Of a stretch of 64,000 nucleotides of DNA, positions 28,309-60,789 are shown piece after piece. Under the pieces are notes generated by a model. It searched no databases, was not told the DNA's origin, and saw only the letters and a program-made list of their open reading frames with translations. Positions within the stretch are counted from its first letter, which is position 1. Each line of letters starts with the position of its first letter. The DNA lies in sequence record NZ_CP024587.1. One strand, 5' to 3'. The position numbers were made by a program, and so were the translations under genes. The stretch is from a plasmid.

Positions 28309-28456
28309 GGTGCGAACGAGCAGCGAAGGCTGCGTGGCAATCCTCTTTCCGTTCGCATCACGGCCCGCGAGCCTGAACCCGATTGGTGCGGAGAGAGGCG
28401 AGGCATGGAGGGCAGGAGGGGAGGAGCGGGGCCGCTACCGCGAGCACCGGACACGC

Positions 28457-28516
28457 GACAAGGGTGCGTCGGCTGGCGCCTCCCGCGCCGGGGCAGGCCC
28501 CGGCTGCGCCCTTGTC
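28457..28516. repeat. Leading-region stem-loop element, copy 1 (variant GACAAGGG...CCCTTGTC)
   Basis: Inverted repeat about 55 bp upstream of the toprim gene, followed by an SD hairpin ATTCCGAGGAAT. Confidence 0.55.
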
Positions 28517-28568
28517 CCGCGTCCGTCTCGCGGTTGGCGGGTGGAATCACGGTGAAGGATTCCGAGGA

Positions 28569-29522
28569 ATGAGTGGCCCCGATGAGGAGTTGGATAGACT
28601 GAGGGAGGGCGTGAACTGTGCCGCCCTGCTGGAGCGCCTGCCGCCCCCCTGGAAGCTGGACAAGGCGGAAAGCACCCGGGACTGCCTGAAGTACCGGCGC
28701 GGCAAGGGTGAGATCATCATCGTCAACCATGGCGGCCAGGGCTGGTGGGACGCCGGGAGCACCGCCAAGGGCGATGTGTTCCGGCTGGTGCAGCACCTCC
28801 GGCCCGATCTGAACTTCGGCCATGTCCGCAAGCTGCTCCGCGAGATGGTCGGGTTGCAGCCGAGCTTTCCCGAGCACGAGCGGGTGCGTCCGCAAGGGGA
28901 GGGGAGCGTCCCACCCGCCATGCGCTGGGCTGCGGCGAAGTCTCTCCGTCCGGGATCGCGGGCCTGGGGCTACCTGGCCGAGGTCCGGCATCTGCCCTCT
29001 CCGGTGCTTCGGGCAGCGGCGGCGGCGGGCGCCCTCCGGGAGGGGGCCTACGGCACCGCCTGGTTCGCCCATCGCGACGAGAGCGGCACGCTGACAGGCT
29101 TCGACATGCGCGGGCCGGTGTTTCGCGGCTTCGCCAAGGGGGGCGAGAAGACCCTGTTCCGCCTGCCCGGCTGGATCCGCTCGCGGGAGGTGCTGCCGCA
29201 CCGCCTGGCCGTGGCCGAGGCGCCGATCGACGCCCTGAGCCTCGCGGCGGTCGAACGACTGCGGGGCGACACCCTCTATGTCGCGACCAGCGGCGGCATG
29301 GGGCCTGGAACCGTCCGTGCCCTGGACCTTCTGCTGGCCGCCATGGCCGCCCTCCCGGATGCCTGCCTGGCCGTCGCCACCGACAGTGACCCACCCGGCG
29401 AACGCTACGCCGCCTTCCTGGGGGAGCGGGCCGCGGCGGCGGGCGTGCCCAGCGAGCGCTGCCTGCCACCGCACGGGCTGAACGACTGGAACGACGCCTT
29501 GCGACAGGGGAGGGGGGCATGA
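28569..29522 (+). CDS. DUF3991-Toprim domain protein (conjugative-element primase/topoisomerase-like)
   Basis: 'EIIIVNHGGQGWWDAGSTAKGDVFRLVQHL' is DUF3991-like. C-terminal Toprim has 'AEAPIDALSLAAVE...LYVATSGG' and 'LAVATDSDPPGERYA'. Confidence 0.7.
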   Translation: MSGPDEELDRLREGVNCAALLERLPPPWKLDKAESTRDCLKYRRGKGEIIIVNHGGQGWWDAGSTAKGDVFRLVQHLRPDLNFGHVRKLLREMVGLQPSFPEHERVRPQGEGSVPPAMRWAAAKSLRPGSRAWGYLAEVRHLPSPVLRAAAAAGALREGAYGTAWFAHRDESGTLTGFDMRGPVFRGFAKGGEKTLFRLPGWIRSREVLPHRLAVAEAPIDALSLAAVERLRGDTLYVATSGGMGPGTVRALDLLLAAMAALPDACLAVATDSDPPGERYAAFLGERAAAAGVPSERCLPPHGLNDWNDALRQGRGA

Positions 29523-29854
29523 GCACCACCGAACGCGCGGCTCCGGCCCCGAGCCACGAAGCGTGGACCCTTGCACGGGCCCTGCACACCGCCTTTCTCC
29601 GGCTGCCCGACCGGCTGAGAGCCCGCTGCACGGTGCCGCCGACCGGGGATGCCGCGATCGACCGGCCGGTGCTGGTCGAGGCCTGCGACGGCTCCGACCA
29701 CTACCGGGGCGTGGTGGTCGCGGGACAGCGCGACGAGAGCGGCCTCTGGTTGCTGGACGACGCCTTCACCCTGCTGACCCTCGACCACGACGACGGCCCC
29801 GAGGCCGCGCTTGTCGTCTGCCATGGATGGAACTGCCATGCCGACCGCATCTGA
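29519..29854 (+). CDS. Hypothetical small protein
   Basis: 111-aa ORF whose start overlaps the toprim stop (ATGA). It overlaps the helicase 5' end, so one of the two starts is likely shorter. Confidence 0.3.
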   Translation: MSTTERAAPAPSHEAWTLARALHTAFLRLPDRLRARCTVPPTGDAAIDRPVLVEACDGSDHYRGVVVAGQRDESGLWLLDDAFTLLTLDHDDGPEAALVVCHGWNCHADRI

Positions 29855-31877
29855 CACCACAGACCACGACCACCTGGTGGCCGGGCTGACCCCTGCCCAG
29901 GGAGAGGCGGCCGGGATGCACGGGCCGGTGCTGGTGCTGGCGGGAGCCGGAACCGGCAAGACCAAGACGTTGACCGCCGGCGTCGTGCTGCGGATCGCCG
30001 AGCGCGGCATCCCCGCCTCTCGCATCCTGGCCGTGACCTTCACCAACAAGGCCGCCAGTGAAATGCGCGCCCGCATCGTCGCCCTGCTTGACGGCCAGGC
30101 GGCGCCATCCTGGATCGGCACCTTCCATGGTCTTGGCGCCCGCCAGCTTCGCCTGGAGCCGGAGATGGCCGGGCTGCGCGAGGGTTTCGACGTGCTCGAC
30201 GCCGACGACAGCCGGCGCCTGCTCAAGCGGATCATGAAGGCCCGAGGTGAGGATGCCGACAACGAGGGCATGGGCAGGGACCCGGTCAAGACCATCGCCG
30301 GACACATCGGACGCTTCAAGGACAACCTCATCACCCCGGGTGAGGCAGCGATCCGCGCCGAGGCGATGATTGCTGGAGACCGGATGGCCGACGCCTCCGG
30401 CCTGCGCGCCGCGGCGCGTGTCTACCCCGAGTATCAGCGGCGGCTGGTGGAGGCCAACGCCGCCGATTTCGGAGACCTGCTGCTCTGGCCGAGCGTGTGC
30501 ATGGGACACGACGAGGAACGCCGGCAGCGCTTCGCCAGCCGCTTCTCCTGCATCCTGGCCGACGAGTACCAGGACGTGAATGCCGTGCAGTACCGATGGC
30601 TCCGGCTGATGGCCAGGGACCATGGCGAGATCTTCGCGGTCGGCGACGATGACCAGGCGGTGTTCGGCTGGCGCGGCGCGGACATCGAATACATCCGCCG
30701 CTTCACGCGCGACTTCCGGGATGCAGCCGTGGTGAAGCTGGAGGACAACTTCCGCTCCACCGGCCACATCCTCGCCGCGGCCAACGCGGTCATCGCGCGC
30801 GAGGACGGCCGCCTCGGCAAGACGCTGCGCCCTACCCGCGAGCAGGGCCAGCCCATCGAGGTGGTCAGGTTCCGCAACGACGAGGCCGAGGCTACCGGCA
30901 TCGTGGCCGAGATCCGCAAGCGCGGCTCGGAGGGCGTGCTCTGGCACGACATGGCCATCCTGTACCGAGCCAACCACCTGTCGCGCAACATCGAGGAGGA
31001 GCTGCTCCGCGCAAGGGTGCCCTATGTGCTGGTGGGCGATGTCGGCTTCTACCAGCGCGCCGAGATCAAGGATGCCCTGGCACTGCTTCGCCTCGCCGCA
31101 AGCCCTGACGATGGCCAGTCCGACGAGGCCTTCCGGCGCGCCTGCAACACCCCACCCCGCGGCATCGGCCCCAAGGCGCTCGATCTGCTGGAGCGCGACG
31201 CCGAATGGCGCGGCTCCTCGCTGCTCGCCGCCTGCCACACCGCGGATCTGCCGGCCAGGGTGCGGGGGGCGGCCGGAGCCTTCGCGGACGCCGTGCGTTC
31301 GGTCGCGGCCGACACCGGCGCCACGGTGGCCGACCGCCTGTCCATGCTGCTCGACCGGACCGGCTACCGACAATGGCTGCGCGACAGCCGCGCCGAGACG
31401 GTTGAGGGGCGCCTGGAGAACCTGGCCGAGCTGGTGCTGCTGGCCGGAGGCTTCCATTCGGCGACCGACTTGCTGGAGCATGCCGCACTGGCCAGCGCCG
31501 CGCCGGGCGAGGAGGCCGGGGGGCGCGTCCAGCTGCTCACCCTGCATCGTGCCAAGGGGCTGGAGTTCGCTCATGTCTTCCTGCCGGCCTGGAACACGAC
31601 GATCTTTCCGAGCCAGTACGGCGACGCGGCTGAGGAACGGCGCCTGGCCTATGTGGCGCTCACCCGCGGCAAGGAGCGGGTGGCGGTCAGTTATGCCGAG
31701 TTCCGCCGCGGCTACGTCGATCCGTCGCCCTTCCTCGACGACATCCCCGAAGCCAACCGGCATGAGGGATGGCTGCGCCCCCTGGAGCGGCGGCCGGCGC
31801 GACCCTCGCCCCGCCAGGCCGGCATGGACGCCCTCAACGAGATGCTCGCCGGCCTCCGTACCCGGCCAAGGGCATGA
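29811..31877 (+). CDS. UvrD/Rep/PcrA-family DNA helicase
   Basis: Walker A 'LAGAGTGKTKTL', 'VTFTNKAASEMRAR', 'ILADEYQDVN', 'LEDNFRST', 'LLTLHRAKGLEF', 'YVALTRGKERV'. Confidence 0.85.
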   Translation: MSSAMDGTAMPTASDTTDHDHLVAGLTPAQGEAAGMHGPVLVLAGAGTGKTKTLTAGVVLRIAERGIPASRILAVTFTNKAASEMRARIVALLDGQAAPSWIGTFHGLGARQLRLEPEMAGLREGFDVLDADDSRRLLKRIMKARGEDADNEGMGRDPVKTIAGHIGRFKDNLITPGEAAIRAEAMIAGDRMADASGLRAAARVYPEYQRRLVEANAADFGDLLLWPSVCMGHDEERRQRFASRFSCILADEYQDVNAVQYRWLRLMARDHGEIFAVGDDDQAVFGWRGADIEYIRRFTRDFRDAAVVKLEDNFRSTGHILAAANAVIAREDGRLGKTLRPTREQGQPIEVVRFRNDEAEATGIVAEIRKRGSEGVLWHDMAILYRANHLSRNIEEELLRARVPYVLVGDVGFYQRAEIKDALALLRLAASPDDGQSDEAFRRACNTPPRGIGPKALDLLERDAEWRGSSLLAACHTADLPARVRGAAGAFADAVRSVAADTGATVADRLSMLLDRTGYRQWLRDSRAETVEGRLENLAELVLLAGGFHSATDLLEHAALASAAPGEEAGGRVQLLTLHRAKGLEFAHVFLPAWNTTIFPSQYGDAAEERRLAYVALTRGKERVAVSYAEFRRGYVDPSPFLDDIPEANRHEGWLRPLERRPARPSPRQAGMDALNEMLAGLRTRPRA

Positions 31878-31953
31878 GGGAGCATAAAAGGTAAGGGAGG
31901 ACGCGACGGCAGGGGAAGGAGATGGACTCTGTGCCACCCTCGGCCGGATCGCC

Positions 31954-32001
31954 GCAAGGGTGCGTCGGCTCACGCCTCCCGCCGCTGCGCGGCGCCCTTG
32001 C
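31954..32001. repeat. Leading-region stem-loop element, copy 2 (GCAAGGG-N34-CCCTTGC)
   Basis: Upstream of the GHKL gene. The extended about 150-nt unit (31930-32060) is shared with copy 3, including TGCCACCCTCGGCC and the GGTCTTCGAGAAGAAGA hairpin. Confidence 0.6.
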
Positions 32002-32088
32002 CCCGCTCCGCCCGGGGCGGCTGCGCGTGGGGGTCTTCGAGAAGAAGATCAGCAGGAGAGGCTACCCGTGACCCACGCCACCACCATC

Positions 32089-33840
32089 ATGCCCGCGCCG
32101 TCCATTCCGATCGCCCGCATCCGCGGCGCCCTGGGCGAGAAGGTGCTGCGCAAGAGCCCGGAGCTGTTCAACCAGTCGCTGCCCACCGTGCTGGCCGAGG
32201 TGCTGCAGAACGCCCGCCGTGCCGGCGCCAGCCGGGTCGAGATCGAGCACTTCGGCGAGGAGGGCCGGGCCACCCTTGTCGTGCGCGACAACGGGCACGG
32301 CATTGCCGACATGGGCAAGCTGGTGACCTTCGGCGCCTCCGCCTGGGACGAGCGGACGGATCTGGCGGAGAACGCCGCCGGCATGGGGGTGTTCTCGCTC
32401 GCCTCGCGCGGCGTGACCGTGCGTTCCCTCGGCCGGCGGGTGACGCTGAGCCGGGCGGTGTTCTGCGGCGAGGCCGACGCCGCGGTGCTGCCTGACCCCG
32501 GGATGGACGCTGGCACCGAGCTGACCTTTCCGGTCACGGAGGCTGGTGTCGCACGGCTCGTGGAGCGGGCGTGCCGCTTCTACCCATTGCCGGTGACCCT
32601 GAACGGCCAGCCCCTGGGGCAGCGCGACTTCCTGGCCGCCGCCGAGCATGTGGTGGAATGGCAGGGGCTGCGCCTGGGTGTGTTCCGGGAGCCCGGACCT
32701 CAGGTGCTGGATCTGTTCGACCGCCACCGTGGCTGGAGCAGCCGTCTGTACCTGAACTTCCACGGCCACGTCGTGGAATGCGGCACGGCGGTCGCCCTTG
32801 CCGAGGTGAGGGGGCCCACCCGGAGCGTGTTCGTGGACGTGATGTCGGCCCCGGACCTGCGCCTGGTGCTGCCGGCGCGCAACGAGCCGATCGACAACGA
32901 CTTCTTCCGCGCCATGCGGGCGCGGGCGGAGCGGGCTCTGCTGGAGGCGGTTGCCCGGCAACCGAAGCATGCGCTGGCCTTCACCGACGCGGAGCGGGCC
33001 GAGCGGCTGGGGATCACCCTGCCACCCGTGGAGATCGCGCTGTCTCCCTGGCGGATGGTCACCTACGAGACGCGGAGCCGTCTGGATGGCGTGGAGGCGC
33101 CCGTGGTGCTCGGAACGGATGGAACCGAGGTGCTGCTGGCGGACGGCGTCAGGTGGAGTGAGGCCTGCGACCAGGCCAACCTGCACCGCCTGCTGCTGGG
33201 CTGGAAGGATGGTCCCCGGGTGGTGGAGTCCAATCCCCGTTTCGCCGGCTATCCCGCCTATGACGCGCTGCGCGTCGTGTGGGAGGTGTCGGCGGTCGGC
33301 GTCGGTGCGGACGGTATGACCGAGGAGCTGGCGCCGCCGGTCTCAGGCAGCCCGCCCGTGTCGTGCGAGGACGATCGCCGGGTGGTCGAGACGGTGCGTG
33401 CCCGCCTCCTGGTGCAGAACGGAGGCCATTCACCCGGCGTGCCGACCCTTCTGCACGAGGCGGAGGTTCCCTTCTTCTTTACCTCCGAGGCCTTCGGTGA
33501 TCTGTTCCCGGACTTCGTCGTGACGCGTGGCACCGCTCCCGGTGATCTGACTGATGCCCTGGTTGAGGGGTTCTTCAGCTACAGCGACGATGCTGATGCC
33601 GACAGCTACGACCGGCAGCTGGAATGCTTCACGGTGGATGCCCTGGACATGGCTCGCGGACTGCTGCTGGACAATGACGCGGCCGTGGCGGCGCGGATCG
33701 TCGACGCCCTCCGGGATTCCCGCTGGGTGCTGCGCACCCTGGGCACCGGGCGCATCGAGCTGCAGATCACCGAATCCCAGGTAGGCAGCACGATCCGCAT
33801 CGTCAACGCGGCGGGCAAGGAGGTGACGGCCACCCTGTAG
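32089..33840 (+). CDS. GHKL-superfamily ATPase domain protein (N-terminal Bergerat fold, long C-terminal region of unknown function)
   Basis: N-box 'EVLQNARRAGAS', G1 'VRDNGHGIADMGKL', G2 'GMGVFS'. An alternative GTG start is at about 32068. Confidence 0.6.
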   Translation: MPAPSIPIARIRGALGEKVLRKSPELFNQSLPTVLAEVLQNARRAGASRVEIEHFGEEGRATLVVRDNGHGIADMGKLVTFGASAWDERTDLAENAAGMGVFSLASRGVTVRSLGRRVTLSRAVFCGEADAAVLPDPGMDAGTELTFPVTEAGVARLVERACRFYPLPVTLNGQPLGQRDFLAAAEHVVEWQGLRLGVFREPGPQVLDLFDRHRGWSSRLYLNFHGHVVECGTAVALAEVRGPTRSVFVDVMSAPDLRLVLPARNEPIDNDFFRAMRARAERALLEAVARQPKHALAFTDAERAERLGITLPPVEIALSPWRMVTYETRSRLDGVEAPVVLGTDGTEVLLADGVRWSEACDQANLHRLLLGWKDGPRVVESNPRFAGYPAYDALRVVWEVSAVGVGADGMTEELAPPVSGSPPVSCEDDRRVVETVRARLLVQNGGHSPGVPTLLHEAEVPFFFTSEAFGDLFPDFVVTRGTAPGDLTDALVEGFFSYSDDADADSYDRQLECFTVDALDMARGLLLDNDAAVAARIVDALRDSRWVLRTLGTGRIELQITESQVGSTIRIVNAAGKEVTATL

Positions 33841-33916
33841 GGAGGCGGATTCGAGAGGAGGGAAGGGAGAGGAACGAGGGGGCGGGGGAGGCCCTGCCAC
33901 CCTCGGCCAGGACGCG

Positions 33917-33961
33917 GCAAGGGTGCGTCGCTCCGCTCCCGCCGCTGCGCGGCGCCCTTGC
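33917..33961. repeat. Leading-region stem-loop element, copy 3
   Basis: Upstream of the 34030 ORF; followed by the GTCTTCGGGAAGAAGAC hairpin. Confidence 0.6.
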
Positions 33962-34029
33962 CCCGCCCCGGCCGGGGCGGCCGGCGGGCTGGGTCTTCGG
34001 GAAGAAGACGCAGCAGAAGGAACGGGATC

Positions 34030-35209: not shown

Positions 35210-35212
35210 ACC

Positions 35213-36019
35213 ATGAGTCTCACCTGCGATCCCTCTGAAGGGCTCCCGGCGGCCTGCCCCTGGTGTGGCGGGCCAGCTGTGCTGGAACTGGCCGAGGCGT
35301 GGACCGACCACGCCTTCCAGCTGGAGACCTGCTGCGAGGCGGCCCATGAGGAGGTGTGTGCCGGCCTTGCCGACGATCCCGCCTGGGCGCGCGACCTGCT
35401 GCGCCAACTCGGCGCCGAGGTGCTGTTGGGAGGCACGCTTCGCCGGGTGGCCGATACCGGTTGCGGCCAGCTGCTGCTGGACTGGAAGCTCGAGATCCGG
35501 CCCGTGAGTTTCGCGGCCGCGGCCGGCTTCGTGCGGCGGCATCACGCCCACAATGCCGCCCCGGTCGCCTGGCGCTACGGCGCCGCCATCGCCAACGGGC
35601 CGACCCGGCTGCTGGGCGTGGTGATGGTCGGCAACCCTGTCGCCCGCGGCCTGATGGGCCGCGGCACGGTCGAGGTGAACCGGCTGTGCATCCGCCGCGA
35701 CGTGCCCCGCGTCCTGGCCTGGAACGCCTGCTCGCAGCTCTACGGCTGGGCGGCGCGGGAGGCCGAAGCGCGGGGCTTCGAGCGCATCGTCACCTACACC
35801 CGTGCCGATGAGGAGGGCGGTAGCCTCACCGCCTCGGGCTGGACCAGGGACGCCCGCGTGCGCGGCCGTTCCTGGAGTAGCCCGGCCCGGGCGCGCCGCG
35901 ATCAGGGCGTGCCGATCGACAAGTGCCGTTGGTCCCGCCTCCTGCGGCCTCGCCGGGCAGCGGAGCGCCCATCCGCGCCGAATCCCGTCATGCCTCTCAC
36001 CCTGGATGCTCCCGGGTGA
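35213..36019 (+). CDS. Cys-rich N-terminus plus possible Mom/XF1762-like GNAT-fold DNA-modification domain
   Basis: N-terminal 'CPWCGG...CCEAAHEEVC'. Centre 'FVRRHHAHNAAPVAWRYGAAIANGPTRLLGVVMVGNPVARGLMGRGTVEVNRLCIRRD' resembles the phage Mu Mom family pattern (FVxxxHY...hhGhhhhG...hEhxRLC). Confidence 0.35.
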   Translation: MSLTCDPSEGLPAACPWCGGPAVLELAEAWTDHAFQLETCCEAAHEEVCAGLADDPAWARDLLRQLGAEVLLGGTLRRVADTGCGQLLLDWKLEIRPVSFAAAAGFVRRHHAHNAAPVAWRYGAAIANGPTRLLGVVMVGNPVARGLMGRGTVEVNRLCIRRDVPRVLAWNACSQLYGWAAREAEARGFERIVTYTRADEEGGSLTASGWTRDARVRGRSWSSPARARRDQGVPIDKCRWSRLLRPRRAAERPSAPNPVMPLTLDAPG

Positions 36020-36440: not shown

Positions 36441-36494
36441 GGCAGGAGAGATGAGAGACAGGGAGGAGGGGCGTGCCGCACCCCGTCCCCCGCC

Positions 36495-36539
36495 GCAAGG
36501 GCAGGGGCCTGACGGCCCGCCGCTGCGCGGCGCCCTTGC
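36495..36539. repeat. Leading-region stem-loop element, copy 4
   Basis: Upstream of the 36594 ORF; followed by the GGTGTTCGGAAAGGAACACC hairpin (36571-36590) holding the SD in its loop. Confidence 0.6.
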
Positions 36540-36593
36540 CCCGGGGGCACGGGGCGCCGGCGACAGGGGAGGTGTTCGGAAAGGAACACCGCC

Positions 36594-36951: not shown

Positions 36952-37230
36952 ATGAGCGCCGTCCGCACCTTTCTCGACCTGTCCACCGCCCATCTCTCGG
37001 ATGAGGATCGGACGCTGCTCGAAGCCTGCGCCGGACACGACACCGGCGAGGTCCTCTGCGCCAGGACCCCCTACGGCTGGTTCGTCTTTGCCTGCGAGGA
37101 ACGGCCAGAGATCTCCGACACCCTCTGGGGATTGTTCCAGAGCGCCCGGGAGCAGGGCTGCGAGTACCTCCTGTTCGACCGTGACGCCCCGATGCTCGAC
37201 GACTTCGCCACCTTCGAGTGGCACGCCTGA
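36952..37230 (+). CDS. Small conserved hypothetical protein
   Basis: 92 aa, 'LDLSTAHLSDEDRTLLE...TPYGWFVFACEE...GCEYLLFDRDAPMLDDFATFEW'. Confidence 0.4.
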   Translation: MSAVRTFLDLSTAHLSDEDRTLLEACAGHDTGEVLCARTPYGWFVFACEERPEISDTLWGLFQSAREQGCEYLLFDRDAPMLDDFATFEWHA

Positions 37231-54301: not shown

Positions 54302-54853
54302 CTAGCCCGCCGCGGCGCGGATCCGGGCGAGATCGAGGACGCCCTTCGCGCCCCAGCCCTTCGTCCCGGCTGCCACCTCCGGGCGGAACTGCTCATAGAG
54401 CCGGAAGGCCACCCGGTTCAGCTCATCCGGATCCAATGTGGCCGCCAACTCCTCCATCGCCTTCCTGACCGGCGCCAGATCCTCCCCGAAGGCCCTCCGG
54501 ACATACCCGGCTGCCGCCTGCGCGGACGCCGGCTTGTCGTGATCGAGCGCGCGTAGCGACCCATCCACCTCGACCACCGGCAGGTCGCGGCCGAGCAGAT
54601 GCACCGCCTTCTGCCGATGCCTCCCCTGACCCTGCTTGCGCGCCTCGTCACGCAGGTCGCCGCTCTCATGCCCCTCCTCGGCGATGCCGATGGACTTCGC
54701 CTTCGCGCGGGCACTGAGGCCGGCGACGGCCCGGCCAAGCGTGATCGCCGTTTCGGGGTCATGCCCCAGGCGCTCGGCCACCACCGCGGCCCAGAGCGTC
54801 AACACCGGCGCCCGGTTCACCTGGACCGTCGGCCCCGCCTTCGTCCCGGTCAT
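54302..54853 (-). CDS. Hypothetical protein (183 aa), opposite orientation
   Basis: Start at the internal Met 'MTGTKAGPTVQVNRAPVLTLWAAVVAERLG' of ORF 54302-55651. The upstream part of that ORF overlaps the + strand gene and is probably spurious. Confidence 0.4.
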   Translation of the reverse strand: MTGTKAGPTVQVNRAPVLTLWAAVVAERLGHDPETAITLGRAVAGLSARAKAKSIGIAEEGHESGDLRDEARKQGQGRHRQKAVHLLGRDLPVVEVDGSLRALDHDKPASAQAAAGYVRRAFGEDLAPVRKAMEELAATLDPDELNRVAFRLYEQFRPEVAAGTKGWGAKGVLDLARIRAAAG

Positions 54854-55477: not shown

Positions 55478-55528
55478 AACGCGCACGAGGGCAGGACGGA
55501 AGATGGCTGCCGCATCGTGGCGTCCGCC

Positions 55529-55574
55529 GCAAGGGAAGGCGGCTGCGCCGCCCGCGCGAAGCGCGCGCCCTTGC
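55529..55574. repeat. Leading-region stem-loop element, copy 9
   Basis: GCTGCCGCATCG...GCAAGGGAAGGCGGCTGCGCC...GCGCGCCCTTGC upstream of the 55689 ORF. Confidence 0.6.
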
Positions 55575-55688
55575 CCCGGCCGCCGCCGTCGCGGCCGGCC
55601 AGAACGGGACAGGGGAAAGAATGGCCAGGCGCGGCAGCGGGCGTCCGGCAAATCCCTGATCCATCCATGACGCTGCGGAGATCAGCCC

Positions 55689-55936: not shown

Positions 55937-56127
55937 CTACGCTGACTGCCTCTCCAGTAGCCGCAGGATCACCACCACCTCTCCCGGAGGGCCGATCTCG
56001 GCCCATCGGCGGACGCTGCGCGCCACGTCTCGCGCAGGGTGCCCGTGGTCCGTCAGCCACCGGCCGAACGCCGCCTGGGTGAACCCCAGATCAGCGAGGG
56101 CGGCGCGGAAATCCTCAGCGGTCATCA
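55937..56127 (-). CDS. Small hypothetical protein, possible HTH (about 63 aa)
   Basis: 'MTAEDFRAALADLGFTQAAFGRWLTDHGHPARDVARSVRRW'; begins a minus-strand block. Confidence 0.3.
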
Positions 56128-56459
56128 ATGATGCTCCTCCGGAGCGCCCGCATCCGACGCCCCCATTCCCGGTGGTAGTCTGCTGTCGCCACAGCGGCGT
56201 CATAGGCTGCCTGTGCGTCCCCGGGCGGGCACATGCCCTGCCGGATCGTCATGACGCGACCCTGCACGGGCGATCCGTCCCTGAGCGGCATCACCAGATG
56301 CCACTCATCCCTGCGGGTCACCGGGTCGTGGACCTCGACCGCCAGGCATCCGCCACCCAACTGTCCGGTCAGGGCGCGGCGCATCGAGGCGGCGCTGTCC
56401 ACCTCGTGCATGGAGCGCGGCGCCGCAGCCGACGAGTGTGCGAGTATCGCGATCCGCAT
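56115..56459 (-). CDS. Hypothetical protein
   Basis: 114-aa ORF co-oriented with its neighbours. Confidence 0.3.
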   Translation of the reverse strand: MRIAILAHSSAAAPRSMHEVDSAASMRRALTGQLGGGCLAVEVHDPVTRRDEWHLVMPLRDGSPVQGRVMTIRQGMCPPGDAQAAYDAAVATADYHREWGRRMRALRRSIIDDR

Positions 56460-56468
56460 CGTCGCCTC

Positions 56469-56855
56469 TCACGCGTAGTAGGCGTAACGGACGGGCTCGC
56501 CCCACAGCGTGCCCTCGGCCTCACCAGCAAAAAAGCCGCGGCCGAAACCCGTGAACCGCAGTTCCTGCCCCGCCTCGGTGATCACCTGGGGAGCCACACT
56601 GCCGTTGTCGCGCATCAGGCGACGGGCCGTCCAGGACCGGGCGCTGGGGGCCGGGCGCGCAACCGGCGCGGCCGGGACAGCCATCGCGCCGATCGCTGCG
56701 ATGACGCGGTCGGCCTCGCGACGGTTCACGAACACCGTGACGGTCAGGCCGTCCACCGAGCTGTCACGCGCGCCGGGCGCCAGCATGGTCTGCACCAGGG
56801 CAGACACCGCGCCCTTGATGCGGGGCAGTGGCGTCGATCCGGGTCTTGGCGCCAA
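56469..56855 (-). CDS. Hypothetical protein
   Basis: 128-aa ORF; start uncertain. Confidence 0.3.
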   Translation of the reverse strand: MAPRPGSTPLPRIKGAVSALVQTMLAPGARDSSVDGLTVTVFVNRREADRVIAAIGAMAVPAAPVARPAPSARSWTARRLMRDNGSVAPQVITEAGQELRFTGFGRGFFAGEAEGTLWGEPVRYAYYA

Positions 56856-57607: not shown

Positions 57608-58389
57608 GTTAGTCAATCATCCTGGACGCCAGTCGGGCAACCGTTCGGACCCAAGGCTCGCACGGCGCATCTTCAACGCCTGGCGCATCGGAACCGCCAT
57701 GCCGATGCCCGACATCGCTCGCCTGCTGGACGTCTGCGGCCATGGGGCGGCTGCCAGCCGGATGCGCCAGACGGCGCTGGAGGGCGGCAGCAATCCCGGC
57801 CTGACCCTCGAAGAAGTCACCGATCTCATCTCCTGCTGGGCGGACGAAACACGGGCTGCGCGACGCAACGCCACGCCTTGAGGCGGGCTCGCGGGGTGCC
57901 CCCTTTCGCCGCCGTCGACCGCGATCCCGCGGAAAGGATGGCATTGGCGCCGCTGATGCCCGGCTCCTGACCAGTCCATAGAGGTCGGATCAGGGATAGG
58001 ATGGAGGGGGAGGAGGGGAATAGAGGAGATTGGAGACGGGCCAGGGGAGATGTCCGAAGGACGAGAGTGGGGAGACGTGTGTCGGCTACCTGCCCGTGCC
58101 GGCCGCATATCCTCGGGGTGCTGCGGTCTGAGCCACGGCGCCGGCCGCTCCTACCCCCGCTTTCCCCGAAGCCGGGGAAAGCGCCTCCGGCTCGGCACGC
58201 TCGGTCAGGGGCCGGGGCCGCGCCTTGCGCGGGGCGATGCCCCGCTGCGGCGCAACCCCAACCCCCTCCCTCACATGCCTCGGGGGTAGGACCGCCCGCC
58301 ACCGCGCCTCTGTTCGACCGCACCCGAGGATACGCGACCGGCACGGGCCGGAAGCCTCTTCGGGGAGAGAGAATGAAGAGGATCTGACG

Positions 58390-58878
<489 letters not shown>

Positions 58879-58987: not shown

Positions 58988-59272
58988 ATGCCCGCAAGCC
59001 TGCTCGCGTCCATCGCCCCGCCGCGCCCGCATGCGCTCACCACCATCATCTGGGATACCATCCACGAGGAGGGTTTCCAGGGCCTCTATGGCCGCTGCCA
59101 CCTCACGAGCTCCTACCATCCCTATCGTTTCGCCTCACGCGAGGCCGCTGGCCGCTTCGCCGCCGCGATGTGCGAACGCCTCGGCTACGACGGCTTCCGC
59201 CTGGACACGCCCGGCCACCGACCGCCGCCGTTCCCTGCGGTGATGTTCGACGACTGCGAAATCCCGTTCTGA
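58988..59272 (+). CDS. Hypothetical protein (94 aa)
   Basis: Start at the internal Met of ORF 58580-59272; C-terminus 'DDCEIPF'. Confidence 0.35.
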   Translation: MPASLLASIAPPRPHALTTIIWDTIHEEGFQGLYGRCHLTSSYHPYRFASREAAGRFAAAMCERLGYDGFRLDTPGHRPPPFPAVMFDDCEIPF

Positions 59273-59282
59273 GGAGCGTGGC

Positions 59283-59534
59283 ATGGGTTTCGTACTGATC
59301 TTCGACCCCGAGCCGCTGCTGAGCGCGCCGCAGTTCTTCGGCCCCTTCGCCTCCCAGTCAGCGGCCAAGCGGTATGCCGAGGCCACGGGGATGACCCTCG
59401 GTCGCGACTTCGACCAGGCCGCCGCCGAGGCGGACAGTCCGGAGGGGCACGGAACGACCGACTTCCCCTGCGCGGTGGCCGCCCTGCGGCCCGGCAATGC
59501 TGGCCCCCGGAACACCGTGGAGGAGCGGACCTGA
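59283..59534 (+). CDS. Hypothetical protein (83 aa)
   Basis: Tightly packed with its neighbours; its stop overlaps the next ATG. Confidence 0.3.
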   Translation: MGFVLIFDPEPLLSAPQFFGPFASQSAAKRYAEATGMTLGRDFDQAAAEADSPEGHGTTDFPCAVAALRPGNAGPRNTVEERT

Positions 59535-59923
59535 TGCTGCGCCAGTATCACGCCCCGCGCCGCCAGGGCGGCGACAACCCGCTCGGCGTCGGCACCATCG
59601 CCCTCGGCTCCGTCTTCTATCTCCAGGACGACGGCCACTGGCGCGCCCGCTTCCGCGGCGGCGCCAGCTGTCGCGCACCCTGGATCGTCGAGGCCTTCCT
59701 CAACGGGCAGTACCACGCCGCCCGCCGCGATCCCGCCACGGGCCACTGGCTCAGCATCTACGCCGCCAACCGCACCGACCTGGCCCTGGTGCGCTCCCTG
59801 CGCGACGGCCGCCGCCTCACCGTCGCGATCCGCCTCCTCCAGCTGCACGAGGACGAAGGCCTGGGGCTTCCGGACAACCGCTACCCGTCCTTGCCCCGGC
59901 CGCGTCAGCGCCCGGCGCACTGA
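59534..59923 (+). CDS. Hypothetical protein (129 aa)
   Basis: 'GTIALGSVFYLQDDGHWRARFRGGASCRAPWIVEAFLNGQYHAARRDPATGHWLSIY'. Confidence 0.35.
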   Translation: MLRQYHAPRRQGGDNPLGVGTIALGSVFYLQDDGHWRARFRGGASCRAPWIVEAFLNGQYHAARRDPATGHWLSIYAANRTDLALVRSLRDGRRLTVAIRLLQLHEDEGLGLPDNRYPSLPRPRQRPAH

Positions 59924-60198
59924 GGCCGCCCGCCCGGCCGAGGGGGGGTGGCCACGCCACCTTCCCTCCCCCCGACAGAAGGCCACCACCATGCCCGCGA
60001 CCTCGTCCCACGACCGGCACGCTCATGCCCTCACCATGGCCAGCAGCCTCGCTTCCGCCCGTCGCTGGCAAAGCGAGGCCTGCGCCCTGCGCGAGCACGC
60101 TGCCCTGCCTCGCCTCACCGCCGCCCAACGTGCGCAGCTACTCCGCGAGGCCGAGGCCGCCGACCGTCAGGCCCGCTTCTGGCTCGACGGCCCGCCCG

Positions 60199-60789
60199 TC
60201 ACCCCGCCGGGCGACCGGCGCGACTGAGCGACCCACGCGGGGACGGCGGCAGCCACCACTCGTCCCCCGCCGCGTCGCGCTCGGCCGCAGGCCGCCACGT
60301 CTCGCCCCGGCGCGCCATCGACACCACCGTCGCCGCCGCCGACGCCTCCAGCGACAGACCATAGGCTTCCAGCGCCAGACGAGCCGCCTCCGTGGCCATC
60401 TCGTCCGCCCGGCGCCGCAGCACCTCCAGCCCGGCATCGCCACGGCGCTGCGACAGATCCGCCACGCGAGCCTGCGCCGTCTCCGCCGCCGCCCATGCCT
60501 CGTCGGAGACCTCCCGCGCCGCTGTCGCCCGGCTGTCGTAGTCCAGCAGCAGCGACCGCAGCGCCGCATCCCGCCGGGCGCCCCGCTCCGGCGGCACGTT
60601 CGCCTCGACGAACCCCGCTACCGCCGCTTCCGCCCGCTCCCGCAGATCCGCCGCCGGCATGTCCAGCTGGAACGCCTCCGCGATCTGCAGCACGACCCGC
60701 ACGTCTGGCACCGCCTCGTGCGCTGCGGCCTCCCGCTCGGGCAGCACCCGCAGCAGCGGGAACCGCACCACCTTGCCAACCTCCGTCAT
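60199..60789 (-). CDS. Hypothetical protein (about 197 aa; start uncertain)
   Basis: Minus-strand ORF divergent from the 60942 gene across an AT-rich promoter region (60790-60940). Confidence 0.35.
   Translation of the reverse strand: MTEVGKVVRFPLLRVLPEREAAAHEAVPDVRVVLQIAEAFQLDMPAADLRERAEAAVAGFVEANVPPERGARRDAALRSLLLDYDSRATAAREVSDEAWAAAETAQARVADLSQRRGDAGLEVLRRRADEMATEAARLALEAYGLSLEASAAATVVSMARRGETWRPAAERDAAGDEWWLPPSPRGSLSRAGRPAG

Follow-up and report, generated by a model that had tools for sequence, protein, structure and literature searches.

A probable leading-region and anti-defence island of a Roseomonas plasmid, with candidate single-strand promoter or priming elements

[quoted passage not shown] This reading of the initial annotation is supported by gene content, by a relaxase gene to the right of the block, by the polarity of the predicted nic site and by conserved gene order. 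Islands of this kind are already known; family A, a cis-element repeated within the block, is possibly new. The window (~70% G+C) resembles Roseomonas plasmid DNA, and the closest record, R. gilardii U14-5 plasmid 1, shows 94-97% identity over the block. The source plasmid would combine a RepC replicon with a relaxase of the MOBF/TrwC type; its nearest complete relative also carries a T4SS of Dot/Icm type (MPF_I).

Genes were called with a codon-usage gene caller and checked against the RefSeq annotation of the orthologous region. The block holds 36 genes, 31 of them on the + strand, so the rightward co-directional array described initially stands with five minus-strand exceptions: an IS5-type insertion (40105-41610), a 183-aa gene (54302-54853) and three small genes (55937-56807) that sit within an indel. 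Its true extent is wider than 28-60 kb, from ~18.9 kb (repC, imuB, dnaE2) to at least 63.7 kb. Domains were assigned by profile matches to Pfam, NCBIfam and PHROGs, and every family listed in the initial annotation (ArdC, PAPS-reductase-like, MTase-helicase, C5-MTase, ParB_N, SSB, DUF3991-Toprim, UvrD, DUF4326, Mom-like, BrnA) was matched:

28569-29522, + strand: DUF3991 and Toprim protein, primase-like (Pfam DUF3991 E 4e-18, Toprim_2 E 5e-9)
29838-31877, + strand: UvrD-family helicase (Pfam UvrD-helicase E 8e-70, UvrD_C E 9e-55)
32068-33840, + strand: 590-aa protein, weak GHKL ATPase (HATPase_c_3) N-terminus (Pfam E 9e-6)
35213-36019, + strand: XF1762-family, Mom-like protein (NCBIfam NF045478; PHROG 1384)
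36952-37230, + strand: DUF5983 protein (Pfam E 2e-26)
37395-37709, + strand: DUF4326 protein (Pfam E 4e-20)
37893-38867, + strand: ArdC (Pfam ArdcN E 1e-35, MPTase-PolyVal E 8e-49; HELAH motif)
38864-39874, + strand: PAPS-reductase-like protein (Pfam PAPS_reduct E 1e-9; PHROG 424 E 9e-32; weak BrxP/DndC/SspD matches)
40105-41610, - strand: IS5-family insertion sequence (Pfam DUF772 and DDE_Tnp_1; transposase gene 40125-41501)
42715-47832, + strand: N6-MTase and SNF2/DEAD helicase fusion, DarB-like (Pfam N6_Mtase, ResIII/SNF2, Helicase_C)
47978-48262, + strand: solitary BrnA antitoxin (Pfam BrnA_antitoxin E 1e-15)
48771-50537, + strand: ParB_N (ParB/Srx nuclease-like) protein, ~590 aa (Pfam ParB_N E 6e-10; PHROG ParB-like families)
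52340-54148, + strand: C5 cytosine DNA methyltransferase, 602 aa (Pfam DNA_methylase E 2e-12)
54302-54853, - strand: conserved 183-aa protein, gene convergent with the C5-MTase gene
58390-58878, + strand: plasmid SSB (Pfam SSB E 5e-34; acidic DDDVPF tail)
58988-60227, + strand: four small conserved genes after ssb (94, 83, 129 and 78 aa), no family match

The longest DUF3991-Toprim ORF starts with TTG at 28383, while its orthologue begins at 28569; homologues occur on 556 plasmids, 366 of which are typed conjugative. NCBIfam matches of the 590-aa protein at 32068-33840 are weak and of MutL type only. The Mom-like protein matches NF045478 with 152 bits (cut-off 50) and the 'Mom-like DNA modification protein' family PHROG 1384 with E 4e-24. 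ArdC consists, according to Pfam, of a ssDNA-binding N domain and a zincin metallopeptidase, and its stop is overlapped by 4 nt by the start of the PAPS-reductase-like gene. The MTase-helicase has 1,705 aa if translation begins at the first ATG and 1,690 aa if it begins where the orthologue does. That BrnA is an orphan, as the initial annotation had it, holds true, since the merely 145 nt upstream of brnA leave no space for a BrnT gene. The 183-aa protein, of which more than 6,700 homologues exist, matches no Pfam family, and the 129-aa protein past ssb has 269 homologues and a poor AF2 model. About 20 small ORFs of the block have no family match in Pfam, NCBIfam or PHROGs, and classical ArdA, KlcA, PsiB and anti-CRISPR families were not detected in the block.

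In agreement with the initial annotation, neither relaxase nor T4SS was found inside the window, a search that comprised Pfam on the block and selected left-flank genes and RefSeq names for homologous parts of 7.4-25 kb; the window holds no oriT either. The annotation had predicted that both relaxase and oriT would lie rightward of 60-64 kb, and near-identical contigs indeed carry a TrwC relaxase and a nic motif there. The last gene of the window encodes a 238-aa protein that recurs unchanged on eight contigs, and all six that extend far enough rightward carry, ~6 kb downstream on the + strand, a 105-aa gene and a 1,040-aa TrwC-domain relaxase. Contigs L007 and L008 show 99.97% identity to the window's last 3.0-4.2 kb. 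The relaxase (TrwC/MOBF) lies at window-equivalent 69.7-72.9 kb, ~5.7 kb beyond the window end. It is known from near-identical contigs and not provably present on the window's own molecule, and the link of the block to transfer genes depends on these contigs and on complete relatives. In the nearest complete plasmid a T4CP and a Dot/Icm-type T4SS, which the initial annotation suggested looking for, stand just past the relaxase, and related Acetobacteraceae plasmids are typed conjugative, MOBF and MPF_I.

The minus strand of the 357-bp intergenic stretch before the relaxase carries GCGCACATAGGGTGCAATGGTGTATGG, which resembles the experimentally defined nic strand of R388, GCGCACCGAAAGGTGCGTATTGTCT/ATAGC (PMC4176350). 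In an Acetobacter plasmid with a relaxase of only 52% identity, the motif is conserved at all but one of 17 positions (chance expectation 2e-4), and it stands opposite the relaxase strand in every Roseomonas locus and in the Acetobacter plasmid. The nic site and polarity are thus predicted by similarity to R388. Because the motif is on the minus strand, the window's minus strand would be the transferred strand and the template of the block genes. The relaxase would nick oriT ~5.3 kb to the right of the window end and pilot this strand 5' end first into the recipient, so that DNA left of oriT would enter first, with the block 9-41 kb from the nick. Given the predicted polarity, gene orientation makes the entering strand the template for 31 of the 36 genes. 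The distance from the predicted nick to the block start, ~9 kb and roughly 12 ORFs, counts against the leading-region reading.

Thirteen intergenic elements fold into stable hairpins on the strand predicted to enter; their structure, conservation and strand bias are shown by the sequence analysis. Window copies of family A were scored with a covariance model, R1:

28417-28557, + strand: family A copy 1 (R1 87.5 bits), 12 nt upstream of the DUF3991-Toprim gene
31913-32044, + strand: family A copy 2 (R1 112 bits)
33876-34004, + strand: family A copy 3 (R1 89.8 bits)
36455-36583, + strand: family A copy 4 (R1 73.4 bits)
37256-37386, + strand: family A copy 5 (R1 91.8 bits), flanks the DUF4326 cassette together with copy 6
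37747-37877, + strand: family A copy 6 (R1 111.7 bits), 16 nt upstream of ardC
50589-50716, + strand: family A copy 7 (R1 87.3 bits)
51371-51498, + strand: family A copy 8 (R1 94.1 bits)
55489-55618, + strand: family A copy 9 (R1 74.3 bits)
42240-42475, + strand: family B element before the MTase-helicase gene, common to 48470-48735
48470-48735, + strand: family B element before the ParB_N gene, common to 42240-42475
58075-58365, - strand: imperfect ~290-nt hairpin directly upstream of ssb, best fold on the minus (transferred) strand
62400-62680, - strand: second long hairpin (~280 nt), before the 238-aa gene at 62970-63686, in the interval from the block to the predicted oriT

Family A is an apparently undescribed family of conserved hairpins before genes. 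The element is ~105 nt long. Its nine window copies are confined to the block, share a single orientation and end 9-71 nt short of start codons. Beyond the window 119 copies were found in Alphaproteobacteria (100 loci from other genomes), 59 of which directly precede a gene for a DUF3991-Toprim, ParB_N or ArdC homologue and none of which is divergent; no Rfam family matched the element. Compensatory changes affect 12 of the 17 pairs and the covariation score is 0.253 against 0.077 in shuffles; the p-values ignore kinship among copies. Of 118 copies, 113 fold more stably on the antisense strand, the excess over what composition explains being -1.7 kcal/mol, and the direction is the same in all nine window copies (copy 1, for example, has an MFE of -42.7 on the template and -38.0 on the sense strand). 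In family B, 8-nt GGAAAGCC-type repeats precede a ~150-nt hairpin; z is -3.0 on the template and +0.3 on the sense strand for the hairpin part at 42240-42475, and -2.6 and -0.7 for the element at 48470-48735. The ssb hairpin, the strongest fold within the window, stands ~25 nt before the ssb start and is kept in relatives (template strand: MFE -127.0, z -13.4, 11 G.T pairs; sense strand: MFE -102.1, z -5.4, 1 G.T pair). The second long hairpin has 36-nt arms that are 92% complementary (template strand MFE -113.4, z -16.4; sense strand -88.7, z -10.1), and in both the transferred strand is favoured by ~25 kcal/mol.

In pESBL and F, leading operons are preceded by hairpin ssDNA promoters of several classes (PMC12672017). 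The elements of families A and B, like the two long hairpins, are candidates for single-strand promoters or priming sites, the ssb hairpin being a candidate Frpo-type element. On the model of the Frpo/ssi elements of F and IncI1 plasmids, they would recruit RNA polymerase and/or primase before complementary-strand synthesis; if this is true, they may switch genes on while the incoming DNA is still single-stranded. An alternative, somewhat less probable than not and yet serious, is that the elements do not act as ssDNA at all and are instead RNA structures, duplex repressor sites or recombination-prone repeats. The RNA version would be 5'-UTR or intercistronic, with processing, stability or translational control as its role. 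Their position shortly before starts, within possibly polycistronic transcripts, fits this alternative, as does helix 3 of family A, where the mismatches are G-U pairs of the sense strand (67 versus 4 A-C). In helices 1, 2 and 4, however, sense A-C mismatches, which are G.T on the antisense strand, prevail over G-U (42 versus 3), opposite to the bias that an RNA-based aligner would introduce. All 118 copies that have letters there share an unvarying CAAGGG/CCCTTG core, as expected for a protein-recognised site; but copies on one and the same plasmid, which face identical trans-factors, differ from each other by compensatory changes, and this speaks for base pairing and not for two half-sites. 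On our own reading of the sequences, the stems contain no convincing sigma-70 -35/-10 hexamers, and near-identical copies flank cassette indels (copies 5 and 6 share 93% identity over 110 nt, copies 7 and 8 99% over 99 nt). Against this stand the better folding of the antisense strand after composition control and the strand difference of the long hairpins, in energy and in G.T pairs. Copy 1 and its R. mucosa HV2 counterpart lie in a divergent intergenic region, and therefore are not terminators of an upstream co-directional gene.

For the proteins of the leading-region island, anti-defence roles are proposed from family membership. SSB would coat the single strand, ArdC would block type I restriction, and the DarB-like MTase-helicase, the C5-MTase, the Mom-like XF1762 protein and perhaps the PAPS-reductase-like enzyme would modify the incoming DNA. 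UvrD and DUF3991-Toprim would aid single- to double-strand conversion, and BrnA would neutralise a resident BrnT-type toxin.

To the left, the island adjoins the following genes:

18947-20305, + strand: RepC-type replication initiator (Pfam RP-C E 5e-32, RP-C_C E 4e-16)
20678-22195, + strand: imuB-like Y-family polymerase (RefSeq name of the R. gilardii plasmid 1 orthologue)
22203-25445, + strand: dnaE2 error-prone polymerase (RefSeq name of the R. gilardii plasmid 1 orthologue)
25731-26426, + strand: ParA/VirC1-like ATPase (Pfam VirC1 E 8e-14, MipZ, CbiA)

Homologous plasmid regions are annotated repC in RefSeq. The proximity of RepC, and of the ParA-like gene at 25.7 kb, could mean that the block is an ordinary replication and maintenance backbone that acts in vegetative life, its closeness to oriT being incidental. 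Toprim, UvrD, SSB and ParB_N are generic DNA-metabolism domains which could equally serve such functions, and MOB-suite types several host plasmids, among them the closest ones, as 'non-mobilizable'. We consider this unlikely. The typing conflicts with the MobF and Dot/Icm genes annotated on these plasmids (that of R. gilardii also has T4CP and T4SS), the ParB_N protein has no adjacent ParA in relatives, ArdC, DarB-like and Mom-like proteins are anti-restriction types, and the hairpins favour the transferred strand. Moreover, gene order toward oriT is kept beside three transfer systems: MOBF/MPF_I here, MOBF/MPF_T in R388 (ssb, ardC) and MOBQ/MPF_T in a Ti plasmid.

It is very improbable that the block is a host-protecting defence island (Gabija-, DISARM-, BREX-, Dnd-like or restriction-modification). 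In PADLOC, UvrD scores up to 274 bits against GajB models, the fusion protein matches DrmD/BrxH with its helicase part, the PAPS-reductase-like protein matches BrxP/DndC/SspD (E ~1e-6) and the C5-MTase matches type II and Druantia MTase models, and the conserved 183-aa gene is convergent with that of the C5-MTase. However, PADLOC detected no complete system: GajA, DrmA/B/C, PglZ/BrxC, DndA/B/D/E and a recognisable nuclease are all absent. The UvrD matches are only generically GajB-like, the MTase-helicase has no nuclease partner, and the C5-MTase, matched by MTase models only, has no recognisable restriction partner. The Toprim protein had no PADLOC match, the confident AF2 model of the 183-aa protein (pLDDT 83.5) found no PDB neighbour, nuclease-like or other, and anti-defence is the reading that suits ArdC, SSB and the way the block lies and points with respect to oriT. 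Least probable of all is a prophage or phage-plasmid remnant with phage-type modification and anti-restriction genes. PHROG families do match the Mom-like, PAPS-reductase and ParB-like proteins, but when 24.6 kb were compared with 50,697 phage records at DNA level, the matches to Ralstonia phage genes spanned only 300-470 nt, all in the MTase-helicase gene, one of them to an annotated 'DarB-like antirestriction protein'. Capsid, tail, terminase and lysis genes were not found in the block, and the whole block is syntenic with plasmids bearing RepC, relaxase and T4SS.

The island is a mosaic, in which cassettes of one element copy and a gene vary between plasmids, some flanked by near-identical copies. 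The DUF4326 cassette (37210-37761) is absent from R. gilardii, the UvrD gene is an indel relative to R. gilardii and present in R. mucosa HV2, and the brnA slot holds a Phd antitoxin and chrA in R. gilardii. Likewise absent from R. gilardii is the IS5 insertion, which splits a DUF6927 gene and has terminal inverted repeats GTCGGCCTTGAA and a target duplicated at the junctions. The ParA/VirC1-like gene lies, according to synteny blocks, within a 3-kb insertion (25352-28422) absent from R. gilardii plasmid 1. This plasmid and that of R. mucosa HV2 otherwise keep the same order, from relaxase through island to dnaE2.

Published islands have oriT at one end and a translesion polymerase operon at the other, and their genes point so as to be transcribed from the T-strand (PMC11541004). 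Compared with such catalogued leading regions, as the initial annotation proposed, the block fits the definition in position and orientation, and imuB-dnaE2 marks its far boundary, by analogy to the umuCD boundary of those islands. In R388 the nic strand is likewise opposite trwABC, and the layout is a mirror image, with trwABC, oriT, stbABC and then ssb and ardC pointing back toward oriT. In the Ti plasmid the genes follow the same order and are directed toward the traC/traA oriT, imuB-dnaE2 stands at the same place, and family A is present in one strong and two weak copies.

The block at 28,383-60,227 had been predicted by the initial annotation to be a conjugative leading region and anti-defence island, and our results support this reading: it is very probably an establishment and anti-defence island of a known kind, belonging to a MOBF conjugative plasmid, in which island genes are preceded by an apparently undescribed, alphaproteobacteria-wide structured element of about 105 nt, here called family A. 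The G+C content of the window is about 70%, and its high-identity megablast matches in PLSDB are almost exclusively plasmids of Roseomonas (Acetobacteraceae). Of these, R. gilardii U14-5 plasmid 1 (NZ_CP015585.1, 265 kb) matches best, with 94-97% identity over the block and several indels. Because shadow ORFs are plentiful at this G+C content, genes were called with a codon-usage model trained on long ORFs, and starts were compared with the RefSeq annotation of the orthologous region. From left to right the window contains accessory cargo (1-18000, pieces of which are 96-98% identical to parts scattered across several Roseomonas plasmids), RepC, an imuB-like gene with dnaE2, an insertion and the block.

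Features to the left of the block
1883-4527, minus strand: GT8 glycosyltransferase and sugar-transferase genes
left-third cargo: DDE_Tnp_1-type transposase gene and ISL3 transposase gene
left-third cargo: Tn7-like tniQ/tniB/Mu-transposase segment
left-third cargo: integrase, scpA, H-NS/HU, VapC and PemK toxin-antitoxin modules
18947-20305: RepC replication gene
20678-25445: imuB-like and dnaE2 genes
between dnaE2 and the block: 3-kb insertion with a ParA/VirC1-like gene

All of the domains that had been named in the block from its sequence are present with significant HMM matches (Pfam, NCBIfam, PHROGs).

Genes of the block
28569-29522, plus strand: DUF3991 and Toprim protein
29838-31877, plus strand: UvrD helicase
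35213-36019, plus strand: XF1762-family Mom-like protein (NCBIfam 152 bits, cut-off 50; PHROG 'Mom-like DNA modification protein', E 4e-24)
37395-37709, plus strand: DUF4326 protein
37893-38867, plus strand: ArdC (ArdcN 123 bits, MPTase-PolyVal 165 bits; HELAH motif in the translation)
38864-39874, plus strand: PAPS-reductase-like protein
40125-41501, minus strand: IS5-type transposase
42715-47832, plus strand: fusion of N6-MTase and SNF2/DEAD helicase (1,705 aa if begun at the first ATG, 1,690 aa with the start used in the orthologue)
47978-48262, plus strand: BrnA
48771-50537, plus strand: ParB_N protein
52340-54148, plus strand: C5-MTase
54302-54853, minus strand: 183-aa protein
58390-58878, plus strand: SSB with a DDDVPF tail

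The XF1762-family match bears out what had been only a possible Mom-like modifier, and BrnA is indeed an orphan antitoxin, as space for a BrnT gene is absent beside its gene. Both the N-terminal ssDNA-binding domain and the C-terminal zincin metallopeptidase domain with HExxH are present in ArdC (Pfam). Additional matches in the block were DUF5983, DUF6927 and a weak GHKL-ATPase N-terminus of a 590-aa protein; for ORFs left unannotated by Pfam, the collections NCBIfam and PHROGs gave XF1762/Mom-like, PAPS reductase and ParB-like matches only, and about 20 ORFs of the block have no family in any of the three collections. The 129-aa protein encoded after ssb has 269 homologues and an AF2 model with pLDDT 49.8. 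The gene classes expected of an anti-defence island are present (ArdC, two MTases, the Mom-like protein, SSB and BrnA, by simple tally). The roles of the block proteins, including protection by ArdC against type I restriction, are candidate roles which rest on family membership.

The block had also been described as a co-directional array. This stands for 31 of the 36 called genes, which lie on the plus strand, while the five exceptions on the minus strand are the IS5-type transposase gene, the conserved 183-aa gene and three small genes situated within an indel (55.9-56.8 kb) that are absent from some near-identical contigs. The IS5-family element (40105-41610) splits the DUF6927 gene, is bounded by terminal inverted repeats GTCGGCCTTGAA and a target duplication of about 6-7 nt (...CTACGTA), and is missing in R. 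gilardii plasmid 1.

In agreement with the initial annotation, neither a relaxase nor a T4SS gene was found inside the window by Pfam, on the block and selected left-flank genes, or by RefSeq names in the homologous parts of 7.4-25 kb. The relaxase was predicted to lie rightward of 60-64 kb. The exact 238-aa product of the last window gene (62970-63686), looked up in public assemblies, is present in eight contigs, and all six that reach far enough share one layout about 6 kb downstream of this gene: a five-gene minus-strand operon, an intergenic region, and then, on the plus strand, a 105-aa gene and the gene of a 1,040-aa protein. This protein carries TrwC and AAA_30 domains (Pfam on record) and is named 'MobF family relaxase' by PGAP, so the prediction of a rightward relaxase held in near-identical contigs. 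Two of them match the end of the window at 99.97% identity, L007 across 4.2 kb and L008 across 3.0 kb, and therefore window-equivalent positions, carried through them past 64 kb, can be given.

Relaxase locus, in window-equivalent positions
69,064-69,421: intergenic region before the relaxase operon, 357 bp
69,735-72,857, plus strand: relaxase

The link of this predicted relaxase to the window, made outside the window's own record, is supported by the near-identical contigs and by complete relatives. In R. gilardii plasmid 1 the orthologue, annotated 'MobF family relaxase', lies at 260,271-263,393, and beyond it, across the record origin, are a T4CP gene (2272-4575) and T4SS genes (1-30 kb), among them homologues of DotD/TraH, IcmT/TraK, DotG, DotH, DotI and DotA/TraY. 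The search for T4CP and T4SS genes, proposed as a check of the initial annotation, was thus successful in this plasmid only, where they share a replicon with the MobF relaxase. Related Acetobacter and Komagataeibacter plasmids, with relaxases 52-54% identical, are typed conjugative (MOBF and MPF_I). The whole arrangement is mirrored, at about 83% DNA identity, in R. mucosa HV2 plasmid unnamed2 (the HV2 plasmid), where the order is mobF, accessory gene, intergenic region, divergent operon, ssb, C5-MTase, ParB_N, MTase-helicase, PAPS reductase, ArdC, XF1762, UvrD, DUF3991-Toprim and then dnaE2. The MOB-suite label in PLSDB for the two Roseomonas plasmids NZ_CP015585.1 and NZ_CP025063.1 is 'non-mobilizable', which conflicts with their own annotation, since MobF is annotated in both; 20 of the 28 plasmids matching 50-64 kb of the window are likewise typed non-mobilizable. 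The mobility of Roseomonas plasmids is probably under-called by this standard typing tool. Directly downstream of the relaxase gene and convergent with it there is a MutS-family gene (804-895 aa; MutS_I/III/IV/V; L007 13145-13921, also in L003-L006 and L008), an unusual plasmid cargo beside a transfer gene.

On the minus strand of the intergenic region a G+C-rich hairpin is followed by GCGCACATAGGGTGCAATGGTGTATGG, and the predicted nic-region sequence on this strand is GCGCACATAGGGTGCAATGGTGTATGGAGC, with the cut predicted after ...GGTGT. The nic strand of R388 is GCGCACCGAAAGGTGCGTATTGTCT/ATAGC, of which the proximal arm GGTGC, the next nine single-stranded bases and a purine after the cut are essential (PMC4176350). 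The nic-like version of the HV2 plasmid, GCGCACCATCGGTGCATTGGTGTATG, has the same 5-bp arms as R388. The 17-mer GGTGCAATGGTGTATGG is found with one mismatch on the same relative strand of the corresponding intergenic region in Acetobacter sp. AC2005 plas4 (chance 2e-4), although the Acetobacter relaxase is only 52% identical; the Komagataeibacter plasmid L013 gave no match even when 3-4 mismatches were allowed. The predicted nic motif is accompanied by four direct repeats of about 22 nt (CATCGGGCGAGCATCGCG...) and short inverted repeats (L007 9385-9480, window-equivalent ~69,150-69,245); the direct repeats may be sites for relaxosome accessory proteins.

The R388-like motif and the relaxase gene occupy opposite strands in all Roseomonas loci. 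In R388 the nic strand has this relation to trwABC, the divergent stbABC adjoins oriT, and ssb and ardC lie farther away, pointing back to oriT; the Roseomonas locus is a mirror image of this layout. From the analogy with R388 we infer that the T-strand corresponds to the window's minus strand. Starting at ~69.3 kb, this strand would leave leftward with its 5' end first, and the block, at a distance of 9-41 kb from the predicted nick, would enter early as the template strand of its own genes. The block is thereby predicted to lie on the first-entering side of the nick, and the T-strand to be the template of its 31 plus-strand genes, both as first proposed.

Several other readings of the block, or of parts of it, were considered. 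The C5-MTase could in principle have a restriction partner in the 183-aa protein, the gene of which is convergent with it in an arrangement constant in Roseomonas plasmids. The AF2 model of this protein is confident (pLDDT 83.5), with no significant PDB neighbour, and no evidence of a nuclease was found; therefore the orphan status of the C5-MTase, for which no restriction partner was recognised, provisionally stands. The 183-aa protein belongs to a very widespread family, with more than 6,700 homologues at ~60% identity or more, to which neither Pfam nor NCBIfam assigns a name. For a complete defence system such as Gabija, DISARM or Dnd, the PADLOC matches were all generic (helicase, MTase, PAPS reductase); the full sets GajA+GajB, DrmA/B/C plus MTase, and DndA-E were not found in the block, and the Toprim protein, the 590-aa ATPase-like protein and others were without a PADLOC match, so this reading was rejected. 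Phage origin was rejected as well: there is no synteny with the phage collection, and the DNA matches, 300-470 nt long, are all within the MTase-helicase gene, to Ralstonia phage genes of which one is annotated 'DarB-like antirestriction protein'. An integrative and conjugative element was dropped in view of the RepC gene and the plasmid matches, no tRNA gene being found in the window.

A repeat search detected dispersed intergenic repeats which, once aligned, defined family A. Its outer stem is TGCCGCA... / ...GCGGC and its second stem CCGCCGCAAGGG / CCCTTGCCCCGG, with compensatory variants such as GACAAGGG/CCCTTGTC, while the inner hairpin is variable (CGCCGC-TGC-GCGGCG, CGCGC-GAA-GCGCG, or an 8-bp version in copy 1). 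The covariance model used for scans, R1, finds nine copies in the window, all on the plus strand within 28,417-55,618, which end 9-71 nt before the starts of plus-strand genes, namely those for DUF3991-Toprim, the 590-aa protein, ArdC, DUF4326 and five small ORFs. At E<=1 no further copy was found in the window; none was found in the oriT-proximal contigs or in 121 kb of other R. gilardii plasmid DNA (one match of E 0.48). The blocks of R. gilardii and the HV2 plasmid have seven and nine copies, respectively. No Rfam 15 family matches the hairpins, at the gathering threshold over the whole window or at E<=5 on 25-64 kb, and the core motif gave no text match in searchable papers.

The pattern CGCAAGGGN{25,50}GCGCCCTTGCCCC, scanned over 185,579 species genomes, gave at least 120 stretches, and R1 recognises 119 family A copies among the first 100 loci of these. 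The hosts listed are nearly all Alphaproteobacteria (Acetobacteraceae, Rhizobium, Shinella, Hoeflea, Methylosinus, Rhodoblastus and others), apart from one Burkholderiales MAG and some MAGs with no label finer than Proteobacteria. R1 gave no hit on the pattern matches in Sorangium, Geomonas, Aeromonas and similar genomes, which are chance matches. Homologues of block genes are present within 8 kb at 62 of 80 loci. A co-oriented homologue lies just downstream of 59 of the 119 copies (DUF3991-Toprim 24, ParB_N 18, ArdC 14), a divergent one beside none of them, and at all 31 multi-copy loci the copies share one strand.

The secondary structure of family A is well supported. In the alignment of 119 sequences 92.2% of cells form a standard pair, against 80.2% after shuffling and 36-52% when the pairing is slid; 12 of 17 pairs are changed on both sides (194 cells; control mean 7.8 pairs); and the covariation score is 0.253, against 0.077 for shuffled alignments, with none of 500 shuffles reaching it. 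These covariation figures overstate independence, given that related copies were compared in an alignment fitted to the model itself. The CAAGGG/CCCTTG core is invariant in all 118 sequences which have letters at the core.

Three lines of evidence point to the gene-complementary strand, the predicted T-strand, as the strand that folds. Among the non-standard cells of helices 1, 2 and 4, A-C or C-A (G.T on the antisense strand) occurs 42 times and G-U on the sense strand three times, which is the opposite of the bias expected from an RNA model; in helix 3, two pairs in a poorly aligned stretch, the relation is reversed (67 against 4). Folded with DNA parameters, 113 of 118 copies favour the antisense strand, the mean difference being -4.06 kcal/mol; dinucleotide shuffles attribute -2.33 of this to composition and leave an excess of -1.73 kcal/mol, seen in 88 of 118 copies (Wilcoxon 3e-11 for the strand excess, the relatedness of copies being ignored). 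Among the window copies the template strand folds better in nine of nine and has the more negative z-score in seven of nine.

Longer hairpins are also present. In a GC-normalised sliding fold scan of the minus strand over the whole window, 58,121-58,360, directly upstream of ssb, ranks first (z -4.9) and 62,401-62,640, upstream of the 238-aa gene, third. As ssDNA the first has -127.0 kcal/mol, z -13.4 and 11 G.T on the template strand against -102.1, z -5.4 and one G.T on the sense strand, and the other -113.4, z -16.4 against -88.7, z -10.1. The second-ranked fold, 26681-26920 (z -4.5), served as a control and is strand-symmetric (-62.3 against -61.1 kcal/mol); situated where the ParA-like gene and a 459-aa gene converge, it resembles a bidirectional terminator. 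Plasmids with an SSB only 53-71% identical retain the ssb-upstream hairpin (z -11.9, -8.7, -5.3 and -4.3, the weakest in an Acetobacter plasmid of 44% GC). A third element, family B, consists of 8-nt GGAAAGCC-type repeats with a ~150-nt hairpin behind them and precedes the MTase-helicase and ParB_N genes; both copies fold better on the template strand, and only there is the folding significant.

Palindromes of the TTTCCCG-N-CGGGAAA type with runs of 8-nt GGAAAGCC/GGAAAGCG repeats are situated downstream of dnaE2 (25436-25642) and upstream of the MTase-helicase (42250-42277) and ParB_N (48496-48527) genes, and may be operator or iteron-like regulator sites. Rfam RF00519 (suhB/mmgR, an alphaproteobacterial sRNA) is matched at 48278-48353 on the minus strand (57.2 bits, gathering 41; E 4e-9), antisense to the block genes in a variable slot between the BrnA and ParB_N genes; a copy of a chromosomal-type sRNA in a plasmid leading region is unexpected.

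By analogy with characterised systems, the elements are candidate ssDNA promoters or priming signals, as they show the position, orientation, dispersion and strand bias expected of these. A role at the level of RNA, or as a duplex operator, is a serious rival. The A-C excess in helices 1, 2 and 4 speaks against folding as RNA, helix 3 has the reverse bias, and reading of the stems by eye gave weak hexamers only, such as CTTGCC in family A, with no A+T-rich -10. Intrinsic terminators were rejected for family A, which has no T-run and two copies of which lie within divergent intergenic regions. The cores of attC sites are RYYYAAC/GTTRRRY; the boxes of family A are unlike these and no integron integrase gene is present in the window, so attC-like recombination sites were rejected too.

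Under the ssDNA reading, family A would fold on the incoming T-strand and would there drive zygotic expression or complementary-strand priming of the DUF3991-Toprim, ArdC, ParB_N and cassette genes, in Roseomonas MOBF/Dot-Icm megaplasmids and in Ti plasmids alike. Compared with R. gilardii, the window has extra cassettes at 29.9-31.8 (UvrD), 37.2-37.8 (DUF4326), 47.9-48.4 (BrnA) and 50.4-51.0 kb. Two family A copies, which share 93% identity across 110 nt, border the DUF4326 indel (37210-37761), and the copies at 50,607 and 51,389, 782 nt apart and 99% identical over 99 nt, flank 65- and 98-aa genes and adjoin the second indel (50415-51018). Such near-identical copies around cassettes suggest that recombination between them may gain or lose units of element plus gene, and as a portable 'promoter plus gene' unit family A would also shuffle the cassettes of the anti-defence island. 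The complete proposal, a new alphaproteobacteria-wide ssDNA promoter and/or primase loading site which also mediates cassette shuffling, is offered tentatively, with rather less than even confidence. The hairpin family is a concrete candidate for single-strand promoters or priming signals outside Enterobacteriaceae, and in alphaproteobacterial plasmids it would serve as a sequence tag by which to find leading regions and the polarity of oriT. Anti-defence islands in leading regions have so far been documented mainly in enterobacterial and Gram-positive elements; the concept is hereby extended to Acetobacteraceae plasmids of Roseomonas mucosa, an opportunist and commensal of human skin.

In pESBL and F the induced leading operons are transcribed from ssDNA by way of six hairpin promoters, which fall into three sequence classes, and such elements may prime complementary-strand synthesis too (PMC12672017); Frpo/ssi single-stranded promoters are known from F and ColIb-P9 (Masai and Arai 1997, as cited in PMC11541004). 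The Roseomonas elements have in common with those of F, ColIb-P9 and pESBL same-orientation dispersed repeats before leading operons, long imperfect hairpins of the transferred strand (here predicted), one of them directly before ssb, and several sequence classes within one plasmid. They differ in the far smaller size of family A (~105 nt), in its branched interior and its CAAGGG/CCCTTG stem that never varies, in that no reconstituted sigma-70 boxes were seen here on reading by eye, and in the alphaproteobacterial distribution of family A.

Anti-defence islands are clusters that extend from oriT to, often, umuCD homologues, rich in anti-restriction, MTase, SSB and toxin-antitoxin genes which face for transcription from the T-strand, with Frpo-type single-strand promoters, often one just before ssb (Samuel et al., Nature 2024, PMC11541004). 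The comparison with catalogued leading regions, proposed earlier as a check, shows agreement with this definition in position between the (here predicted) oriT and a translesion-polymerase operon, in wealth of anti-restriction genes, orphan MTases, SSB and antitoxin genes, in near-uniform orientation with the (likewise predicted) transferred strand as template, and in structured elements before genes, including directly before ssb. The differences are a host plasmid of the acetobacter family with 70% GC, a MOBF relaxase and a Dot/Icm-type T4SS; a far boundary (20.7-25.4 kb) formed by dnaE2 and a Y-family polymerase gene of imuB type, which in R. gilardii has the DUF3991-Toprim gene as its immediate neighbour and is, by analogy, a functional counterpart of umuCD, not a umuDC homologue pair; no ArdA, KlcA, PsiB or Acr families detected in the block; a start ~9 kb from the predicted nick and a reach to ~41 kb, past the 'first 30 ORFs' enriched there; and hairpins in which reading by eye showed no canonical -35/-10 hexamers.

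In both R388 (IncW, MOBF) and the Roseomonas locus a small accessory gene precedes a TrwC-family relaxase, a divergent operon lies by oriT with ssb and ardC behind it facing oriT, and the same GCGCAC(C)...GGTGC inverted repeat, TGT(C)T/AT(A)G-like cleavage region and purine after the cut, here predicted, are present. No sequence similarity was found between the 105-aa protein and TrwA, or between the oriT-proximal 279-aa ATPase of the divergent operon and StbB; the analogy between these accessory proteins is positional only. Unlike in R388, the relaxase here has no adjoining T4CP gene, the T4SS of relatives is MPF_I instead of MPF_T, and the island is about five times longer. The MTase-helicase resembles DarB-type proteins of phage P1 in being a giant fusion of N6-adenine MTase and SNF2/DEAD helicase, a link made here through the Ralstonia phage annotation; protection in cis or co-delivery with DNA would follow by analogy only. 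The metallopeptidase domain of ArdC is Pfam's 'MPTase-PolyVal'; 'polyvalent proteins' of phages and conjugative elements are reportedly the subject of a 2017 paper by Iyer et al. in J Bacteriol.

The Ti plasmid (pTiC58-type; NZ_CP032929.1) has the same order and orientation of imuB, dnaE2, DUF3991-Toprim, a 1,693-aa MTase-helicase, ParB_N and ArdC, then a divergent operon and the relaxase, with all island genes facing traCDG/oriT/traA. Family A is represented there by three copies of this same orientation, of which one is strong (50.8 bits) and two are weak. The RefSeq name of the plasmid's MTase-helicase (9866-14947 of locus L137) is 'lactate dehydrogenase', as also in an R. mucosa plasmid, evidently a propagated mis-annotation. 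Unlike the window's plasmid, the Ti plasmid has a MOBQ relaxase, an MPF_T T4SS and DUF1419, DUF3085, DUF736 and zeta toxin cassettes, and the DUF3991-Toprim proteins of the two are ~40% identical. In PLSDB, 556 plasmids carry a homologue of this protein, and 366 of these plasmids are typed conjugative. The Ti synteny and these plasmids thus make the island a widespread alphaproteobacterial module and not a Roseomonas peculiarity, and as the same module stands beside unrelated transfer systems in Ti and rhizobial plasmids, its ~20 conserved genes without assigned function are candidate anti-defence or establishment factors.
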